Assembly (NCBI GenBank): GCA_030429505.1
Contig: JAUIFI010000001.1
Coordinates: 180,001 to 212,000, forward strand
From: Candidatus Saccharimonadota bacterium
GTDB lineage: Bacteria > Patescibacteriota > Gracilibacteria > UBA4473
Direction of reading: 5' to 3'
DNA: 32,000 nt
Shown here: positions 3,051-30,457 of the stretch, piece after piece
Layout: every line of letters begins with the position of its first letter
How positions within the stretch are numbered: position 1 is the stretch's first letter
The notes under the pieces: generated by a model
Database searches by the model: none
The model's input: the letters and a program-made list of their open reading frames with translations, nothing else
Told to the model about the DNA's origin: nothing
Translations under genes and position numbers: made by a program

Positions 3051-4037
3051 TTAGTCCTGAATAATCTTCCACTTAATTTCTTTCTGCAAGTGTCCACCCT
3101 TGACCATAAATCCAGACGCTTTGATATGCCCCCCACCTCCAAATTGCTCAGCCAAAGCTTTGACATCCACATCTTGTTTTCGAGTTCTCAGAGATGCTTT
3201 TACATTCCCTTTTTCATCCTCTGACAAAAGTACAGAATATTTAGCCTCTGGCATAGAGTTGATGAAGTCAATAACCCCCGTCAAATCTTCACGTTTCGCT
3301 CCCAAGGATTCATAATCTTTTCGAGAAACTCCCACAATCGCAGCCCCTTCAGGAGTTAAATATAAGTTTTGTAGCACGCGACTCCATAATTTCAGCATAG
3401 TTGGTTCATGAGACTGAAACACCTTTTTTGCTATTTGCGAAGCATTTGCCCCTAATCTTAAAAGTTGACCAGCTACATCATACGTTGCTGAAGTAGTATT
3501 CTGATGCATAAAAGATCCTGTATCAGTATAAAGACCTAACAATAAACATGTCGCGATTTGGGGAGTTATTTTGGCTCTTAAGCCTTGTAGAAGGTGAAAA
3601 ATAATTTGTGTCGAAGAGGACGCATGTGTAACTACAAAATTTATATCTCCAAAAGAATCATTTGAAGGGTGATGGTCAATATTTATCTTTATCATTTCCC
3701 CTGAAAGAATTCGAGGCTTATCTTCTTCGAAACGAGTCATGGTTCTACTTCCACAATCAACGAAACAAACCGCATCAAAAGATTTTTCGTCAAAATCACT
3801 CTTCATATGTTCCTCAAAAGGAATGAAATGAAACGCATCTGGCACCGGATCTAAACAAGCTACCGAGACATCCACTCCCAGAGATTTTAATCCTGCGAAA
3901 AGTCCCAAGCTTGAACCAACAGCATCTCCATCTGGATTGGCATGCGTGAGAATAATAAGCTTCGGTTTTTGTCTCACAAGATAGTCTTGTAACTTTTGTA
4001 ATTCCGATTCATTAATAAATGATTGATTCATATTCAT
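3051..4037 (-). CDS. nrnA: DHH/DHHA1 family phosphoesterase (NrnA-like oligoribonuclease/pAp phosphatase)
   Basis: DHH motifs are THANPDGDAVGS, DCGS and NIDHHPSN. The DHHA1 motif is GGGGHIKASG. Length is 328 aa. Confidence 0.85.
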   Translation of the reverse strand: MNMNQSFINESELQKLQDYLVRQKPKLIILTHANPDGDAVGSSLGLFAGLKSLGVDVSVACLDPVPDAFHFIPFEEHMKSDFDEKSFDAVCFVDCGSRTMTRFEEDKPRILSGEMIKINIDHHPSNDSFGDINFVVTHASSSTQIIFHLLQGLRAKITPQIATCLLLGLYTDTGSFMHQNTTSATYDVAGQLLRLGANASQIAKKVFQSHEPTMLKLWSRVLQNLYLTPEGAAIVGVSRKDYESLGAKREDLTGVIDFINSMPEAKYSVLLSEDEKGNVKASLRTRKQDVDVKALAEQFGGGGHIKASGFMVKGGHLQKEIKWKIIQD

Positions 4038-4232: not shown

Positions 4233-4442
4233 ATGAAAAGCTGTTGTGATTCTGGTGTCGGAAAGGTAGCTTACGTCCTCGTGCTCATTGGAGCTCTCAA
4301 TTGGGGATTAACTGCTATCGGTTTCAATCTGGTAAATATGCTCTTCGGAAGCATGCCAGGAATTGAAACAACAATCTACGCACTCGTAGGAATATCTGCG
4401 GTGTATATGATTGTTATGTCTATTCAAAGCTGCGGTAAGTAA
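4233..4442 (+). CDS. DUF378-type small membrane protein
   Basis: 69 aa with two TM helices. It carries the IGALNWGL signature typical of DUF378. Confidence 0.8.
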   Translation: MKSCCDSGVGKVAYVLVLIGALNWGLTAIGFNLVNMLFGSMPGIETTIYALVGISAVYMIVMSIQSCGK

Positions 4443-4526: not shown

Positions 4527-5516
4527 CTATTCTGAAAAAAGAGGAGTGTCAGAACCACGAAACCCTAACAATATCTCATGAATAAGAGATGATAGGTTTT
4601 GCGCAAAAGGAGCAATGCTGGAAGATGCCTGCATCGCACGTTGTGCTTGTTTCTCAGCCAAAAAAAGATTTTCAATCGCTGCTAAATGTTTTTGGAACTT
4701 CAGAGCCTGAAGACTATCAGAAAAATGAGTGAGAGCGAATGATATTGCATTTGCCGCTACAGCATTTTTATCATTCTGAGATCGCGTCATGCGATCAGTC
4801 AGATCAATAATAGATTGAAGATGGAGCATTGCTTTATCTTTTTCACCGGCTCGAAGGAATGTCATAAACTGTTGAATTCTTGCTTGAAGCTCAACAAAAA
4901 TTTTGGTCACATTATCTCCATGAAAAAGTCTCAATTGACGAAAAGTCATAATCGCAACTTCTCGGCGGGATACCAATTTATGAGGTCGATACATCCCATC
5001 AGAAGGGAGTTGTGTTATCTGAAATTGGTCTGCATACGCAAAATGCGGTGCATACCAAGCATCTTCAGGAATATCATGCGCTAGATCTTTCGTTCGAGAA
5101 AAATAGTTACGAAAATCAACTTGAGTCGCCCGAAATAAAAATGCCAAAAACTCTGCTTTGGTAGTTGTTGCTTCAGGGCGAAAACGATTTGACTGAGCCA
5201 AAATTGCCTTTGTTTCCACCGCTCTCCCGACCACCGGTGCATACCATGCATTTGGATCTACATCTACAAAAGGAATCGCTCCTTCAAAGGTCGTTGGGAT
5301 AGCAATCCCGCCTGCTCGTAACGCAATCACCAACGCCTCAGCTCGAGTCAAAAGCTTCTCAGGATGAAAATTTCCATCCTCAAAAGAATGCATAATGCCC
5401 ACATCATTCAAATGCTGAAAAATATATCCATGAGGGTCATCTACTGTGATATCAAAAAAAGCCAGACTGGAAAAACAAGGAAAGCAAAGCAATGCACCCC
5501 AGAGAAATCTTTTCAT
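4527..5516 (-). CDS. secreted protein with three N-terminal SLH (S-layer homology) domains
   Basis: The start at ATG 5516 gives the signal peptide MKRFLWGALLCFPCFSSLAFF. Three SLH-like repeats follow: F-D...GI..F.DGNFHPEKLLTRAEAL; FVDVDPNAWYAP...FRPEATTTKAEF; IPEDAWYAP...YRPHKLVSRREV. The C-terminal half is helical. Confidence 0.8.
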   Translation of the reverse strand: MKRFLWGALLCFPCFSSLAFFDITVDDPHGYIFQHLNDVGIMHSFEDGNFHPEKLLTRAEALVIALRAGGIAIPTTFEGAIPFVDVDPNAWYAPVVGRAVETKAILAQSNRFRPEATTTKAEFLAFLFRATQVDFRNYFSRTKDLAHDIPEDAWYAPHFAYADQFQITQLPSDGMYRPHKLVSRREVAIMTFRQLRLFHGDNVTKIFVELQARIQQFMTFLRAGEKDKAMLHLQSIIDLTDRMTRSQNDKNAVAANAISFALTHFSDSLQALKFQKHLAAIENLFLAEKQAQRAMQASSSIAPFAQNLSSLIHEILLGFRGSDTPLFSE

Positions 5517-5524
5517 CACTTTGT

Positions 5525-5552
5525 AGTATAAAAAGAACGATAGCACGGTCAA
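5525..5552 (-). promoter_or_regulatory. sigma70-like promoter immediately upstream of the SLH gene ATG
   Basis: On the minus strand: TTGACC (5552->5547), 16-nt spacer, TATACT (5530->5525). Only 8 nt separate it from ATG 5516. Confidence 0.45.
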
Positions 5553-5573
5553 CTATAACACACAGGAGGAAAT

Positions 5574-5614
5574 AAAAAAAACGCTCCAGAGTCATTGCCG
5601 GCTGACTCTGGAGC
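5574..5614 (-). terminator. strong intrinsic terminator (minus strand)
   Basis: Perfect 12-bp stem GCTCCAGAGTCA (5583-5594) / TGACTCTGGAGC (5603-5614) with an 8-nt loop. On the minus strand, G plus eight U (5581->5574) follow. Confidence 0.85.
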
Positions 5615-5831
5615 TAATATATGTTTTCACCGCCGGGGTGATGGTTCTGCCTTGTCTAAGCTCGTTTCAAATATGGAGCAGGATAGTAAGGCAGTCACCA
5701 AGTCGAAACTAAGTCATAACTCCCTCCTTTTGGGCATGTTTTGGTTAAGTTTCTAACTGAGACTTACGTGAAGTCTCAGGTCTTCTGATGTCTTAAAAGC
5801 ATCTGAACTTATTAAGACTTTTGATGAAGAC
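5574..5831 (-). ncRNA. candidate ~255-nt structured small RNA or leader, unknown family
   Basis: It runs from a promoter-like motif at 5837-5865 to the terminator at 5574-5614. It contains three further hairpins (5780-5831, 5757-5779, 5637-5699). It is visibly GC-richer than its surroundings and has no ORF above about 25 codons. Confidence 0.55.
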
Positions 5832-5836
5832 AATCT

Positions 5837-5865
5837 ATTTATAATGTATTTTGTTTTTTTGTCAA
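5837..5865 (-). promoter_or_regulatory. sigma70-like promoter of the candidate sRNA
   Basis: On the minus strand: TTGACA (5865->5860), 16/17-nt spacer, TATAAAT (5843->5837). Confidence 0.5.
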
Positions 5866-6057
5866 ATGTTTTTTAGACTTTTTTTATAAAAAGCTCATTT
5901 CTGTTTTTATTTAAACTTCTAACACACGAAAAAATAGACGTTAAGCTTTTGTACACAATTTTTCCTCAAAAGATACTTTACCATAGACTATAAAAAAGGA
6001 AATGTATTTTTATTGATTTCTATCATTCTTTTTCGTATCTATTAAGATGAATTCGAA

Positions 6058-7215
6058 ATGAAAAAAATAATCTCCATTTTTATTCTTGGGATAGGAAGCT
6101 TTATTTCAGACGTTTTAGGCGTAAAAATAGAGGGAGAACCCTATATGTTTACCATCACTGGATATTATTCTCCACTTCCAAATCAACCTTTTTATATTAC
6201 TGGGAGTTATGAATCAGAAATCCGCCTCAATGGATCAGGAGTCAGAGGTGCTGATGGCACTCCAGTTTACGCTGGAATGATTGCAGCGCCTCCCAATTAC
6301 GCTTTTGGTACCAAAATTTGCCTTCCTAATCTTGGATGTGGTGCGGTCAATGATCGAGGAGGAGCCATCGTGAAAAAAGGGAAGAGAGCATTAGCTCGAC
6401 ATGATCGACTCGATGTATGGATGGGATATGGAGAGGAGGGGCTTCTTCGTGCTTTAGCCTATGGTGTTCAACATGTTGAAGGACAAGTCTTTCCCAAGGA
6501 ATCTAGCGTGCAAATAGCCATGAATTTTGAAGTTCCACCAAGTCTCCATGAAATTATTGATCTTCCTAATAGACCTATCTTTGACCAAAATCTCGTTATG
6601 GGAGGAAGTGGAGATAAAGTAGCCTCTCTTCAAAAAGCTCTCAATGCGCTAAGTTTGTATGAAGGATTACAAGACGGAATATTTAATGACACTTTGAAAA
6701 ATGCAGTTTTTGAGTTTCAAAAAAGACATTTTATCGTTGAAAACGAAAACTCCCTTGGAGCAGGAATATTCGGACCACAAACTCGATCAAAACTCACCTC
6801 GGTCCTCTATAAAAAGCAAGTCCAGGATCAAATAAAAATGGCTTGGGATGAATTTCATTTCAACGACGAAATTCAGCAAGGAAAGCGAAACGGTGATGTA
6901 TTCCGACTCCAGCAAGTATTAGTACAGGAAGAATTTATGGATGTACATCCAACCGGTTATTTTGGTCCTGTCACAAAAGGAGCCCTTATCGATTTTCAAT
7001 TAGCCCACAATATCATTAAAACATCAAACAGTCCTGGTGCTGGCAGAGTTGGTCCATCTACACAAAAAAAACTCAACGAACTGTTAGAAGAGAAAAAAGC
7101 CATTGCCGCTCAAGAAAAACAAAAAATAATCGCCTACCAAAAGAAAAGACAAAATTTCAACCAATTAGCCGGTAAAAATAACACTCCAAAAAACATTTTT
7201 GCTCAAAAAAATTAA
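6058..7215 (+). CDS. cell-wall protein: 3D domain plus two peptidoglycan-binding (PG_binding_1) repeats
   Basis: N-terminal anchor or signal sequence. The 3D-like region is TGYYSP...GSGVRGADGTPVYAGMIAAP..FGTKI...VNDRGGAI...DVWMG. Two repeats follow, with GD.V..LQ..L.....G.FG..T..A...FQ. Confidence 0.85.
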   Translation: MKKIISIFILGIGSFISDVLGVKIEGEPYMFTITGYYSPLPNQPFYITGSYESEIRLNGSGVRGADGTPVYAGMIAAPPNYAFGTKICLPNLGCGAVNDRGGAIVKKGKRALARHDRLDVWMGYGEEGLLRALAYGVQHVEGQVFPKESSVQIAMNFEVPPSLHEIIDLPNRPIFDQNLVMGGSGDKVASLQKALNALSLYEGLQDGIFNDTLKNAVFEFQKRHFIVENENSLGAGIFGPQTRSKLTSVLYKKQVQDQIKMAWDEFHFNDEIQQGKRNGDVFRLQQVLVQEEFMDVHPTGYFGPVTKGALIDFQLAHNIIKTSNSPGAGRVGPSTQKKLNELLEEKKAIAAQEKQKIIAYQKKRQNFNQLAGKNNTPKNIFAQKN

Positions 7216-8778: not shown

Positions 8779-11700
8779 ATGAAAAAGTACGATCACCAAG
8801 AAATTGAGAAAAAATGGCAGAACTATTGGCTTAAAAACAAAACTTTTAAGACTACAGAAAATTCGAACAAAGAAAAATACTACGTTCTCGATATGTTTCC
8901 TTATCCCTCTGGGGCAGGACTCCATGTCGGACATCCTTTGGGGCAAACTGCCACAGACATAATAGCCCGTAAACGTCGTCATCAAGGTTACGAAGTTCTC
9001 CATCCTATGGGCTGGGATGCTTTTGGACTCCCTGCTGAAAACTATGCAATTAAAACCGGTATTCATCCTGCGATTACTACCAAAGAAAACAGCGACACAT
9101 TCCGCCGACAAATTCAATCACTCGGCTTTAGTTATGATTGGGATCGAGAAATAAATACCACAGATCCTCAGTACTACCGTTGGACACAATGGATTTTTTT
9201 ACAACTCTACAAAAAAGGTCTCGCCTACGAAAAATCTATGCCTATGTCATGGTGTCCCAAATGCAAGATTGTAGCCGCAAACGAAGAAGTCGAGCAAGGG
9301 ACGCATGAACGTTGCGGTACACCCGTGGAAAGAAAGCACCTCAAACAATGGATGTTGCGGATTACCGAATACGCAGAAAGATTATTAAATGATCTGGATT
9401 CTCCCAATATCTACATTATCCACGGCTGGGGTTCTGATTCTCAGTCCAACTGGTTTGAACGAGCGCGTCAATTTCTCGTGAGCAAAAAAGTACGCGTTTG
9501 CGTCCCGGATTTTCCCCATACCGATAACCCTGTTTACAAAGAATGGAAAACTCATTTTGAATCTCAGTTCATCCAGCTTTGGTCTCAAGACATCCTGATC
9601 GGACACAGCTTAGGGGGAGGTTTTATGCTCAAATATCTGTCTGAAAATGACATACAAATCGACAAATTAATCTTGGTTGCTCCCACCATCAAAGATTATG
9701 ATGTTCTAGAACTCAAAGACTTCTACACCAAAACTTTTGACTACGACAAGATCAAACAATCTGCTCAAAAGATTGCGATCTTTGCCTCAGACAATGATCA
9801 GTACATCCCACTCAAAGACTTCCAATTTTTGGCTCAACAATTAGACGCAGAACTCATATTATTGCCACAACGAGATCATCTGATGGATCCGAATTTTCCA
9901 GAATTATTCGAATATCTGGGAGATATCCAGCGTTCGATTCTCAACTGGCCAGACAAGATCAAAGCCATGCAACGCAACTGGATCGGAAAAAGTGAAGGAT
10001 TGCTTTTTACAGCTCCGGTCAAAGATACCAATATTACTATTCAAACCTTTTCTGCTCATTTTGAAGCATTTTGTTCAGATAATTTTGTTGTTATCGCTCC
10101 AGATCACCCTTTCCTTGAAACTTTACTTGAAGGAATAGATAACAAACAGGAAATTCTTGATTTTTGTAAAGAATTGATTCGAAAACGTATGGAGCGAGGG
10201 TTTGAAGAAGAAAAAGAACCGGAAGGCATCTTTACTGGCAGATATATTATTGACCCAGTCGGAAATGGTGATTTACCTATCTGGATAGCCAGCTTCGCAC
10301 TTGCGGATTATGGAACGGGGATTGTCAAATGTTCCGCTCATGACGAACGGGATTTTGCCTTTGCCAAAAAATATAATATTCCTCTCAAACCCGTCCTTTT
10401 CCCGAAAGACCCGGAAAAAGCAGAAAAAGTTAAAAATCTCGAAGTTTGCTGTACAGATATGGTTGATGGGATCTTAACAGAACCCACCGAATTTACAGGC
10501 AAAAGATCTGGCGATGTCAGACAAGAGATTATAGAGTACATAGAAAAAAAAGGATTTGCCAAGCGACAAACCACTTACAAACTTCGCGACTGGATTTTTA
10601 CTCGCCAGCGTTACTGGGGAGAGCCCATTCCTATCGTCTTTGATGAAAAAGGGCAGGACTATCCACTTGATGACTCAGAACTTCCCTTGCAATTACCAGA
10701 AATTGCAAAGTATGAACCATCTGAAACTGGAGAATCACCTCTAGCAAGTATTGATTCGTGGGTCAATATCCAAGGATACATAACCAAACAGGGGACTGTG
10801 AAAACCATTCAATCAGGAGATAAAGCTCCAAAAGACACGACCATTCAAAAGTTTAAACGAGAAACTTCCACTATGCCCAATTGGGCGGGAAGTTCGTGGT
10901 ATTGGCTACGATTTATGGATCCTTGTAATGAACAAGAATTTTGTTCAAAAGAGAAAGAAAAATACTGGGGACCAGTAGACCTTTACGTTGGTGGAGCTGA
11001 ACATGCAGTCCTTCACCTGCTCTACGCTCGATTCTGGCACAAAGTTTTGTATGATTTGGGCTTAGTCTCCACCAAAGAACCTTTCAAAAAACTCCTCAAC
11101 CAAGGTCTAATCCTCGCCGAAGATGGACATAAAATGTCAAAATCACTCGGCAATGTTATCAATCCCGATGATATTGTGAAAAAATATGGAGCAGACACTC
11201 TTCGCGTCTACGAGATGTTTATGGGACCTTTTGAGCAATCAAAAGCTTGGAATATGAATGCCGTGGAAGGAGCGCGAAAATTCTTGGATAGAGTATGGCG
11301 AGTATCACAAAAAAATAATAAAAATAGAAAAAAAGAATCTATTTCATCCCTTCTTCATCAAACGATAAAGGTTGTCACAGAACATATCGAAGAATTTCGA
11401 TTCAATACCGCCATTTCCCAGCTTATGGTCTTAACCAATGAACTGACTGCACAAGAAGAGATCTCACAAGAGACTCTTGAAATTTTTGTCATCCTTCTTT
11501 CTCCCTTTGCCCCTCATCTAGCTGAAGAAATCTGGAGAGAAATATTGGGACATACAGAGACTGTCGCCTACGAACCATGGCCAACTTGGAATCCTGAATA
11601 TCTGATTGAAAATGAAGTCACTTATGCCGTTCAGATTAACGGAAAAGTTCGGGCTGACTTTACCACTCCAAAAGATACGGCAAAAGAAGAAGTTGTGGCT

Positions 11701-11802
11701 AAAGCGAAGACTCTAGAAAATGTTTCAAAATACTTAGATCAGGGAACAATTATCAAAGAAATATTTGTCCCGGAAAAAATAGTAGGATTTGTGGTGAAAT
11801 GA
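8779..11802 (+). CDS. leuS: leucyl-tRNA synthetase with an extra internal domain
   Basis: HIGH motif (HVGHPLG), KMSKS, WCPKC zinc module, CP1 editing region, YKLRDWIFTRQRYWGEPIP and a C-terminal tRNA-binding domain. At 1007 aa it is about 180 aa longer than usual. Confidence 0.96.
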   Translation: MKKYDHQEIEKKWQNYWLKNKTFKTTENSNKEKYYVLDMFPYPSGAGLHVGHPLGQTATDIIARKRRHQGYEVLHPMGWDAFGLPAENYAIKTGIHPAITTKENSDTFRRQIQSLGFSYDWDREINTTDPQYYRWTQWIFLQLYKKGLAYEKSMPMSWCPKCKIVAANEEVEQGTHERCGTPVERKHLKQWMLRITEYAERLLNDLDSPNIYIIHGWGSDSQSNWFERARQFLVSKKVRVCVPDFPHTDNPVYKEWKTHFESQFIQLWSQDILIGHSLGGGFMLKYLSENDIQIDKLILVAPTIKDYDVLELKDFYTKTFDYDKIKQSAQKIAIFASDNDQYIPLKDFQFLAQQLDAELILLPQRDHLMDPNFPELFEYLGDIQRSILNWPDKIKAMQRNWIGKSEGLLFTAPVKDTNITIQTFSAHFEAFCSDNFVVIAPDHPFLETLLEGIDNKQEILDFCKELIRKRMERGFEEEKEPEGIFTGRYIIDPVGNGDLPIWIASFALADYGTGIVKCSAHDERDFAFAKKYNIPLKPVLFPKDPEKAEKVKNLEVCCTDMVDGILTEPTEFTGKRSGDVRQEIIEYIEKKGFAKRQTTYKLRDWIFTRQRYWGEPIPIVFDEKGQDYPLDDSELPLQLPEIAKYEPSETGESPLASIDSWVNIQGYITKQGTVKTIQSGDKAPKDTTIQKFKRETSTMPNWAGSSWYWLRFMDPCNEQEFCSKEKEKYWGPVDLYVGGAEHAVLHLLYARFWHKVLYDLGLVSTKEPFKKLLNQGLILAEDGHKMSKSLGNVINPDDIVKKYGADTLRVYEMFMGPFEQSKAWNMNAVEGARKFLDRVWRVSQKNNKNRKKESISSLLHQTIKVVTEHIEEFRFNTAISQLMVLTNELTAQEEISQETLEIFVILLSPFAPHLAEEIWREILGHTETVAYEPWPTWNPEYLIENEVTYAVQINGKVRADFTTPKDTAKEEVVAKAKTLENVSKYLDQGTIIKEIFVPEKIVGFVVK
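9400..9945 (+). other. alpha/beta serine-hydrolase domain (YdeN/RBBP9-like) inserted within LeuRS
   Basis: Residues ~208-389: IYIIHGWG..., nucleophile elbow GHSLGG, SDNDQYIP, RDH and FPELFEYL. It is flanked by LeuRS segments LLNDLD and WPDKIKAMQRNWIG, which are contiguous in E. coli LeuRS. Confidence 0.75.
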
Positions 11803-20036: not shown

Positions 20037-20090
20037 AAAATTTGACGCCTCGCCAAATTTTCGTACAGTTGGAAAGCTCTTTTTTCGTTT

Positions 20091-20118
20091 TTGAAAGTGA
20101 CATAAAGGGGGATAATAC
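20091..20118 (+). promoter_or_regulatory. possible promoter for the tRNA-Asp transcript
   Basis: TTGAAA (20091-20096), 16-nt spacer, TAATAC (20113-20118). This implies a 5' leader of about 125 nt. Confidence 0.35.
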
Positions 20119-20251
20119 ACGAGCAGAGCGGGGGCTCTAAACGTGGAAAAAACGCGAATCGAGTGAGTGCTCGATGAGCGAGACGAGAAGATGATGATAT
20201 TGGAAGCTTCTGCGAATAGACGAAGCGACTTCACGAAATCAGCTTCGAGGA

Positions 20252-20328
20252 GGGATCGTAGCTCAGTTGGTTAGAGCGCCGCCCTGTCACGGCGGAGGTC
20301 GCGGGTTCGAGTCCCGTCGGTCCCGCCA
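20252..20328 (+). tRNA. tRNA-Asp (anticodon GTC)
   Basis: GGGATCGTAGCTCAGTTGGTTAGAGCGCCGCCCTGTCACGGCGGAGGTCGCGGGTTCGAGTCCCGTCGGTCCCGCCA. The cloverleaf folds, the anticodon loop is CUGUCAC and CCA is encoded. Confidence 0.95.
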
Positions 20329-21331: not shown

Positions 21332-21360
21332 TTGACATATTTTTCAATTTCCTTTAATAG
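21332..21360 (+). promoter_or_regulatory. sigma70-like promoter upstream of the GC-rich element
   Basis: TTGACA (21332-21337), 17-nt spacer, TAATAG (21355-21360). Confidence 0.4.
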
Positions 21361-21366
21361 TGAAAC

Positions 21367-21517
21367 TGCGGTAAGTAAAAGTTTGTCTTAACAGTCTCTT
21401 GTTCGCAAGGAGTGAGCGCTTTCAGCTTCCCGGACCAGCTGAGTATCCCCCTTCCGCACTGGGTGATCCGGCCAAAAGCCCCCGCGGTATAACGCTGTAC
21501 CGGGGGGCTTTCTTCTT
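21367..21517 (+). ncRNA. candidate ~150-nt GC-rich structured RNA, unknown family
   Basis: It lies between the promoter-like motif and a GC-rich terminator. Internal helices include a UUCG-capped stem (21397-21413), TCAGCT/AGCTGA (21422-21442) and CCGGA/TCCGG (21431-21471). No plus-strand gene lies downstream. Confidence 0.35.
21475..21517. terminator. GC-rich intrinsic terminator (could serve either strand)
   Basis: GCCCCC-(G)-CGGTA (21478-21489) pairs with TACCG-GGGGGC (21498-21508). TTTCTTCTT follows on the plus strand, and AAAA precedes it (CTTTTGG on the minus strand). Confidence 0.7.
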
Positions 21518-29956: not shown

Positions 29957-30457
29957 ATGAGTGATAATAGCTTTGAGCAACGCCTAAACACACAAGCCGA
30001 ACAAGAGTTTGGGAAGGATGTTATACCTCAGGCAAATGAAGCAGTAGAGCAGAAGACAGAGGCTGTGGTTCAGGCTGTTGAAGCCGTTGAAAAAAGTATT
30101 GCTGAGGATATTCCTGCTACATCGGGACAAACTCAAAAGATTGCAACAAAGCAAGGATTTTTGACTCAATTTTCACAAAATATTACCAACCTTTTATCCT
30201 CTAATAAAGCTCATACACAGAAAATTCCAGATAGAGCAACACAAGAAAAAAGAATCAAACACACCCTAGAGAAGGAACAAAGCAAGCTTATCAAGCAAAT
30301 GAAGAAACTAGAAAACAGCAGAAATTATTCAGCAAATAAACTAGAGACTCTTATTGCTCACATCAGACAACTCCAAAAAACGATAAAAGAACTTTTCTAT
30401 CTAGCTATAGAACAACTAGAAGGCTTGTATCGAAAAGTCGTTCTCAAACAAGGATGA
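29957..30457 (+). CDS. hypothetical coiled-coil protein
   Basis: 166-aa ORF rich in Q/E/K with a helical heptad-like C-terminal half. No domain recognised. Confidence 0.65.
   Translation: MSDNSFEQRLNTQAEQEFGKDVIPQANEAVEQKTEAVVQAVEAVEKSIAEDIPATSGQTQKIATKQGFLTQFSQNITNLLSSNKAHTQKIPDRATQEKRIKHTLEKEQSKLIKQMKKLENSRNYSANKLETLIAHIRQLQKTIKELFYLAIEQLEGLYRKVVLKQG

Follow-up and report, generated by a model that had tools for sequence, protein, structure and literature searches.

What is the role, if any, of a GC-rich and highly structured element placed between two divergently transcribed genes of a streamlined genome? The question arises from a 32,000-nt stretch of contig JAUIFI010000001.1 (positions 180,001 to 212,000, here called the window), which belongs to a Gracilibacteria/Peribacteria-type Patescibacterium. 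The genome is roughly 1 Mb and uses the standard genetic code, TGA ending 6 of 26 long open reading frames (ORFs). The element, ~258 nt on the minus strand, lies between a gene for a PG-binding-domain protein (6058-7215, plus strand) and a gene for an SLH-domain protein (4527-5516, minus strand). Here, the gap between these two genes measures 541 nt, as compared to 90-330 nt in most orthologous loci. An initial annotation had described the segment as GC-richer than its AT-rich surroundings; the GC content is indeed 0.43-0.49 inside the element and 0.21-0.27 in the flanks, and the higher value equals the level of coding DNA in the window. Considered together, the promoter, the terminator and the fold described below suggest a candidate stand-alone small RNA (sRNA), that is, a self-contained and lineage-specific transcription unit. 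We give this reading about an even chance.

The promoter of the element matches the sigma-70 consensus at 11 of 12 positions, with a spacer of 16 nt. This agrees with the TTGACA/TATAAAT promoter and the start near 5831 that had been proposed from inspection. Matches of at least 11/12 number four on the two strands of the window (64 kb of sequence), including the one at the element, and the remaining three are found directly upstream of genes (380->430, 4093->4037 and 29919->29957). Chance was assessed on shuffled sequences, and the set for intergenic comparison comprised the 10 regions of the window that span 120 nt or more. When the intergenic region of the element is shuffled, a promoter match of at least 11/12 arises in 2% of cases. 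Separately, a motif of the form TTGAC[AC]-N15/16-T(T/G)TAAAAG(G/A)GT is present at three intergenic sites (29889, minus strand; 30490, plus strand; 8737, minus strand), and these sites may represent a variant promoter type. The TTGACA-N16-TATAAATAGAT of the element is loosely similar to this motif.

The second signal is an intrinsic terminator, located ~250 nt downstream of the promoter and on the same strand. The perfect 12-bp, GC-rich stem and the U8 tract recognized in the initial annotation are both present, and the stem has a predicted pair probability of ~1. The window has no other site at which a T-run follows a perfect stem of 9 bp or more; shuffled windows contain 0.05 such sites each. 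A generic terminator scan of the window returns, beyond this terminator, no more than expected by chance. The terminator is also placed where no gene would need one, the genes on its two sides being transcribed divergently.

Folding of the 258-nt RNA predicts a minimum free energy (MFE) of -84 kcal/mol (z = -5.9), and none of 200 shuffled sequences folds as well. The z-score without the terminator is -4.6; the partial values are -4.65 for hairpins (HP) 1 and 2 and -3.35 for HP3 and HP4. Among the 10 intergenic regions, a z-score below -3 is observed in one, the region that contains the element (-5.2/-5.6), the others ranging from +1.4 to -2.9. Both the MFE structure and the ensemble consist of local hairpins, with no long-range helix and no helix closing the 5' and 3' ends (Table 1). 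Three hairpins had been drawn by eye, namely a bulged 5' hairpin (5831-5780), a perfect 9-bp hairpin (5757-5779) and a bulged hairpin of ~60 nt (5637-5699; 5700-5637 in the present analysis), and all three reappear in the computed fold. Two other parts of that model require revision. The stretch of ~55 nt described as unpaired is instead predicted to form a weak hairpin (5753-5705), with a z-score of only -1.8. In addition, the GGUGA/UCACC helices proposed to be mutually exclusive can coexist, since a register shift in the MFE structure (UGGU/ACCA together with UCACC/GGUGA) accommodates both hairpins.

Table 1. Predicted features of the element and of the adjacent SLH promoter, in window coordinates
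Feature	Position	Strand	Description
-35 hexamer TTGACA	5860-5865	-	Preceded by an A-tract (AAAAAAC, up to ~5875)
-10 element TATAAA(T)	5837-5843	-	16 nt past the -35; predicted start near G5831
HP1, bulged hairpin	5780-5831	-	Outer helix GUCUUC/GAAGAC, inner helix GUCUUAA/UUAAGAC plus 4 more pairs; z = -3.7 alone
HP2, perfect 9-bp hairpin	5757-5779	-	CUGAGACUU/AAGUCUCAG, loop CACGU; arms 5757-5765 and 5771-5779; z = -3.9
Weak central hairpin	5705-5753	-	Closed by GAAACU/AGUUUC; tip CCC-AAAAGGA-GGG; z = -1.8, not significant
Two-codon ORF with Shine-Dalgarno-like motif	5709-5729	-	AAGGAGG (5729-5723), 5-nt gap, AUG ACU UAG (5717-5709)
HP3, bulged hairpin	5642-5700	-	UGGU/ACCA (or GGUGA/UCACC), CUGCCUU/AAGGCAG, GCUC/GAGC; 12-nt loop
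HP4, small hairpin	5627-5641	-	UCACC-CCGGC-GGUGA, in the MFE structure
Intrinsic terminator	5574-5614	-	Perfect 12-bp stem with 7 G-C pairs (5614-5583), G, T8 (5581-5574); z = -6.7
SLH gene promoter TTGACC-16-TATACT	5525-5552	-	Spaced 8 nt from the ATG at 5516; lies outside the RNA

The predicted transcript has essentially no coding capacity. Its longest AUG-initiated ORF extends over 8 codons (six-frame translation with codes 11 and 25), and tblastn of all six frames of the whole intergenic region against the window and ~650 kb of fetched loci gives no match, in keeping with the earlier judgement that no credible ORF is present. A 53-aa ORF on the plus strand belongs to no NCBIfam family; in a HMMER search against 1.84 billion representative proteins it returns only an additive-score match to a repeat protein and no real homologue. 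Judged in silico as a stand-alone sRNA, the element thus has its own promoter, its own intrinsic terminator on the same strand and no coding potential.

Within this non-coding unit, the central hairpin presents an unusual sequence. Its tip is the purine-rich AAAAGGAGGGAG, which includes a Shine-Dalgarno motif placed at 5 nt from an AUG, the textbook layout for initiation at a two-codon ORF. This arrangement is out of style for the host genome, because a comparable Shine-Dalgarno sequence precedes 0 of the 29 genes in the window. Several strong promoters in the window are positioned 5-10 nt from an ATG (the SLH gene at 5516 and the gene at 29957 among them), and the host appears, as judged from these gene starts, to rely on leaderless or Shine-Dalgarno-independent initiation. 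The motif can be read in two ways: as the relic of an acquired gene, or as a functional loop of the RNA that would bind anti-Shine-Dalgarno or pyrimidine-rich sequence. Just past the terminator, a CCUCCU (5569-5564) is able to pair with the Shine-Dalgarno-like loop, and this only in a read-through RNA. It falls within UUUCCUCCU (5564-5572, minus strand), an anti-Shine-Dalgarno-like sequence directly past the terminator and 13 nt before the SLH -35, which is complementary to AGGAGGGAG of the central loop over 9 bp, 2 G-U pairs included.

If the element is a stand-alone sRNA, its expression likely involves: initiation near 5831 by the housekeeping sigma factor at TTGACA-16-TATAAA; folding of the transcript into a row of local hairpins (HP1, HP2, the weak central hairpin, HP3 and HP4); and release at the strong intrinsic terminator, with a 3' end at ~5574-5580, 22 nt before the SLH -35. 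The promoter, the terminator, the fold, the lack of an ORF and the absence in relatives are seen in silico; transcription, the two transcript ends and any function are inferred. Our committed guess would be a trans-acting regulatory RNA, or one that binds a protein or the ribosome. The putative interaction site is AAAAGGAGGGAG, a perfect Shine-Dalgarno mimic before AUG-ACU-UAG, which is taken to be the most accessible and most unusual feature of the molecule. This loop could bind an RNA rich in pyrimidines, or else 16S rRNA at its anti-Shine-Dalgarno end.

Known systems offer partial parallels. E. coli GcvB and Spot 42 and B. subtilis SR1 are stand-alone sRNAs with a sigma-70 promoter and an intrinsic terminator. 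The element likewise has the form of an independent intergenic unit of ~100-300 nt, with several stem-loops, a GC-rich hairpin followed by a U-run, and no ORF. In contrast to these RNAs, to which it has no sequence or structure homology, it is not conserved within its family, its helices are all perfect, and it carries a full Shine-Dalgarno/AUG/stop mini-cistron. We know of no sRNA chaperone in bacteria belonging to the candidate phyla radiation (CPR). The mini-cistron itself is reminiscent of the bar minigenes of phage lambda, which consist of a Shine-Dalgarno sequence, an AUG, one sense codon and a stop, and act via peptidyl-tRNA drop-off in E. coli. The element has the same strong Shine-Dalgarno sequence at optimal spacing, the AUG, the one sense codon (ACU) and the stop; here, however, the host seemingly does without Shine-Dalgarno-led initiation, and the mini-ORF is known from sequence alone.

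The distribution of the element was analyzed through the SLH gene. The SLH protein has ~90 orthologues, which are 47-61% identical to it and carry the labels Candidatus Gracilibacteria, Peribacteria or Altimarinota. The locus has just one further copy, on a Logan contig with 100% identity across 14 kb. The comparison covered 36 orthologous loci; GTDB genomes supplied 34 SLH loci, and the two closest relatives (Logan contigs L081 and L082) the others. What these loci carry at the equivalent slot is varied. In L023 (~3780-3860) it is a tRNA-Asp gene with its own terminator, and in L012 (3540-3881) a promoter followed by a 113-aa ORF, both in the same orientation as the element. L002 and L005 (~3240-3380) contain inverted repeats of 25 bp that resemble miniature inverted-repeat transposable elements (MITEs), L007 and L028 contain other palindromes, and L081 has a different gene upstream. 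We read the slot between the PG-binding and SLH genes as a recombination-prone hotspot whose inserts vary between lineages, the element being a lineage-specific occupant of it. The tRNA-Asp gene of L023, with its terminator, shows that the slot can hold an RNA gene, which favors the interpretation as a stand-alone sRNA.

Several observations weigh against the sRNA interpretation. The initial annotation had named a lack of sequence or structure conservation in relatives as a finding that would speak against it, and no homologue was found: the element is present at 0 of the 36 orthologous loci, where the slot is either short or occupied by unrelated inserts. An nhmmer search of 80 fetched loci recovers only the element itself, as do two single-sequence covariance models (HP1+HP2 and HP3+HP4) run over the window and 45 related loci (384 kb). 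JGI metagenomes, scanned once for a 22-mer of the Shine-Dalgarno loop and once for a 20-mer of the HP3 tip, give no match; three pattern scans of viral contigs, exact and degenerate, give one chance match within a coding sequence; and blastn in distant mode finds no match among phages and plasmids. With no homologue, there is consequently no alignment on which covariation could be assessed. In the fold, G-U pairs account for 1 of 75 predicted pairs, all main helices are perfectly Watson-Crick paired, and such perfect palindromes also fit a young insertion at the DNA level. The fold of the complementary strand is no weaker (-93 versus -84 kcal/mol), so that folding gives no strand signal, and the assignment to the minus strand comes only from the promoter and the T-run. 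In that promoter the -10 hexamer does not have the highly conserved T at position 6, which is why a strict promoter scan skipped it. Finally, duplex-folding target prediction against 30 translation-start regions of the window performs no better than for shuffled RNA. A 13-nt perfect complement in the leucyl-tRNA synthetase (LeuRS) coding region (11182-11194), considered as a target, was rejected as being at chance level (E = 0.26).

The absence from relatives is best read as lineage specificity and not as disproof of an RNA gene, because even the closest relatives are far removed (identity of the SLH protein no higher than 61%). As no database protein is closer than 61% to the SLH protein, the close relatives of this organism are probably unsampled.

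Among the alternatives to a stand-alone sRNA, the one that survives best is the relic of an acquired and decayed small gene, of which the promoter, a structured 5' untranslated region, the ribosome-binding site with its ATG and the terminator would be left, while the frame was lost. Such a remnant would have no function, and may still be transcribed. The perfect AAGGAGG-5 nt-AUG, with just one sense codon before the UAG, is what this proposal anticipates, and a Shine-Dalgarno style that is alien to the host fits a foreign origin. It is further consistent with the ORF and promoter in the same orientation in the L012 slot, with a GC content equal to that of the coding DNA of the window, and with the absence of the element from all relatives. 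However, no frame shows protein-level similarity in the window or in the ~650 kb of fetched loci. The z-scores of the parts that flank the mini-ORF (-4.65 and -3.35) are unexpected for decayed coding sequence, and in a streamlined genome of roughly 1 Mb one would expect a dead 300-nt cassette, here with its strong promoter and terminator intact, to erode. On this balance, we consider a gene relic unlikely.

Another possibility would be an insertion that matters only at the level of DNA: a palindromic element similar to a MITE or to repetitive extragenic palindromic sequences, or a cluster of inverted repeats that binds protein, with the look-alikes of a promoter and a terminator being incidental. 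The nearly complete Watson-Crick pairing (1 G-U pair in 75) and the equal folding of the two strands would both follow from such an origin. HP1 and HP2 both contain a GTCTT/AAGAC motif, which is found again immediately upstream of the -35, long inverted-repeat insertions are present in the slots of L002, L005, L007 and L028, and an 8-nt direct repeat, GTGTGTTA, at 5563 and 5927 brackets the inserted region. As a target-site duplication, this repeat was rejected, since it is at chance level. The MITE-like insertions share with the element the variable slot and the perfect palindromes; they differ from it in being single long inverted repeats that carry no promoter or terminator signals and have no sequence similarity to it. 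No second copy of the element occurs in the window or in related loci, and the ends of the unit have no terminal inverted repeats. Moreover, that one of the four best promoters and the sole strong terminator should stand in the right order on one strand by accident is hard to credit. A purely DNA-level insertion is accordingly viewed as quite improbable.

The element could also act in cis on the SLH gene, either as an attenuator leader driven by a distal promoter, or as an upstream transcript whose read-through occludes the leaderless SLH promoter. Its position is compatible with this, as it lies immediately upstream of the SLH gene in the same orientation, with the SLH -35 beginning 22 nt past its terminator, and the pairing of CCUCCU with the Shine-Dalgarno-like loop could take place in read-through RNA. 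Terminator-controlled leaders such as riboswitches, T-boxes and attenuators are, like the element, structured RNAs that end in an intrinsic terminator upstream of a gene in the same orientation. A difference is the promoter that intervenes. The initial annotation had noticed a separate promoter-like motif between the terminator and the SLH ATG; this promoter is kept in nearly all orthologous loci (L002-L035) as TTGACC, ~16 nt, TATACT and 5-8 nt to the start codon, and the short spacing to the start codon implies a leaderless SLH mRNA. As the SLH promoter lies past the terminator of the element, a role as leader, riboswitch or attenuator is strongly disfavored. The riboswitch-type leader that had been entertained earlier is not supported, and the preference for a stand-alone sRNA expressed at that time is upheld.

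Other data point the same way. Within a read-through transcript, the AUG, which no Shine-Dalgarno sequence precedes, would be buried. While ~90 SLH orthologues exist, the element accompanies the gene at none of the 36 loci examined. No competitive antiterminator is found, the best pairing elsewhere being 6 nt (GCUCCA in HP3) against the 12-bp stem, and the alternative helices that had been proposed coexist in the MFE structure; an Rfam match is likewise missing. Regulation of the SLH gene in cis is thus very unlikely. At the SLH promoter itself, a perfect palindrome, TTTTTTGTACAAAAAA, abuts the -35 TTGACC in L002-L005, L012, L013, L020, L023, L026, L029 and L032, and is likely an operator or UP-type element. 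The SLH promoter of the window does not have TTTTTTGTACAAAAAA; a similar TTGTGTACAAAAG is located at ~5965-5949, upstream of the inserted unit.

A bolder proposal is that the element founds a new class of structured non-coding RNA in the CPR, in which the exposed Shine-Dalgarno mimic and the start-stop mini-cistron would make it a regulator or decoy directed at the ribosome or the anti-Shine-Dalgarno sequence, and not the usual base-pairing sRNA. This we regard as a long shot.

Membership of a known RNA class was addressed directly. Rfam models can be insensitive in CPR genomes, and an RNA-like unit in such a genome might be a diverged member of a familiar class (signal recognition particle (SRP) RNA, 6S RNA, RNase P RNA, transfer-messenger RNA (tmRNA), a riboswitch or a TIGR stem-loop guide array). 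At gathering thresholds, Rfam 15 identifies three tRNAs in the window and nothing at the element. At E <= 10, the best scores over 5400-6000 are 9-18 bits, far below the thresholds of 33-167, and belong to implausible, unrelated families. ARAGORN finds no tmRNA. 6S, SRP, RNase P and tmRNA were all rejected, as the element forms local hairpins only, with no closing helix or tRNA-like domain, and has no credible covariance-model match at E <= 10. The Rfam check suggested with the initial annotation has thereby been run, and its statement, made by eye, that known RNAs do not match holds for the Rfam and ARAGORN searches.

Tandem TIGR arrays are made of stem-loops without repeat conservation and have been reported in Patescibacteria (PMC12045711; bioRxiv 10.64898/2026.09.09.750476). 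The element is likewise a row of stem-loops with a terminator in a CPR genome, without repeat conservation. It differs in the units, since a TIGR unit has two spacers of 8-12 nt with box C/D motifs on either side, and such units are absent here, and the element's hairpin sizes are irregular (52, 23, 49, 59 and 15 nt). A re-implementation of the published unit rule detects 0 units on either strand, and the candidate was rejected. No Tas/Nop gene occurs within the 32 kb: searches of the window ORFs with Pfam and against PDB sequences reveal no Nop/Tas-like protein, and for the three largest unannotated proteins of the window the PDB search gives no sequence match. That the element belongs to a known RNA family is hence largely refuted and, within the reach of the tools used, effectively excluded; a diverged member is most improbable.

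Other parts of the window also contain features of note. A second RNA-like unit (21332-21515, plus strand) begins with TTGACA-18-AATAGT, continues for ~150 nt with GC up to 0.61 and a multi-stem junction fold, and has at its end a GC-rich stem (GCCCCCGCGGUA.../...UACCGGGGGGC) and then UUUCUUCUU. It has no Rfam match at E <= 10 and a z-score of only -1.8; alternatively, its stem could serve the convergent ROK gene as a terminator. The GTCTTAA that this unit has in common with the element is too short to mean anything. At 20042-20251 (plus strand), a promoter-like TTGACG-16-TACAGT is followed by ~180 nt with GC up to 0.51, before a tRNA-Asp at 20252; this stretch represents either a tRNA leader of unusual length or a further unannotated RNA. 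The LeuRS gene (8779-11802, plus strand) encodes 1007 aa, among them a Pfam Ser_hydrolase/alpha-beta-hydrolase domain (aa 211-368, E = 9e-17) that separates the catalytic core from the editing domain, an uncommon fusion or insertion in a LeuRS. In the 490-nt gap between the SLH and DHH genes, a GC-rich island is explained by a 69-aa ORF (4233-4442, plus strand) for a DUF378 membrane protein (Pfam E = 1.4e-16), which is missing from the matching gap of the closest relatives, L081 and L082.

CPR/Patescibacteria have genomes of roughly 1 Mb and very short intergenic regions. For this reason, a 540-nt spacer that contains a strong promoter, a tight 258-nt fold and the sole strong terminator in 32 kb is unlikely to be idle. 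To our knowledge, the regulatory RNAs of CPR/Patescibacteria are almost unexplored, and the element, if transcribed, would be among the first candidate sRNAs of its lineage. Its Shine-Dalgarno-mimic loop would then provide a handle on how the ribosomes of an organism seemingly devoid of Shine-Dalgarno sequences treat this motif. Should the element prove to be no more than a recent insertion or the relic of a gene, it would still mark a recombination-prone slot beside a conserved, leaderless SLH gene.

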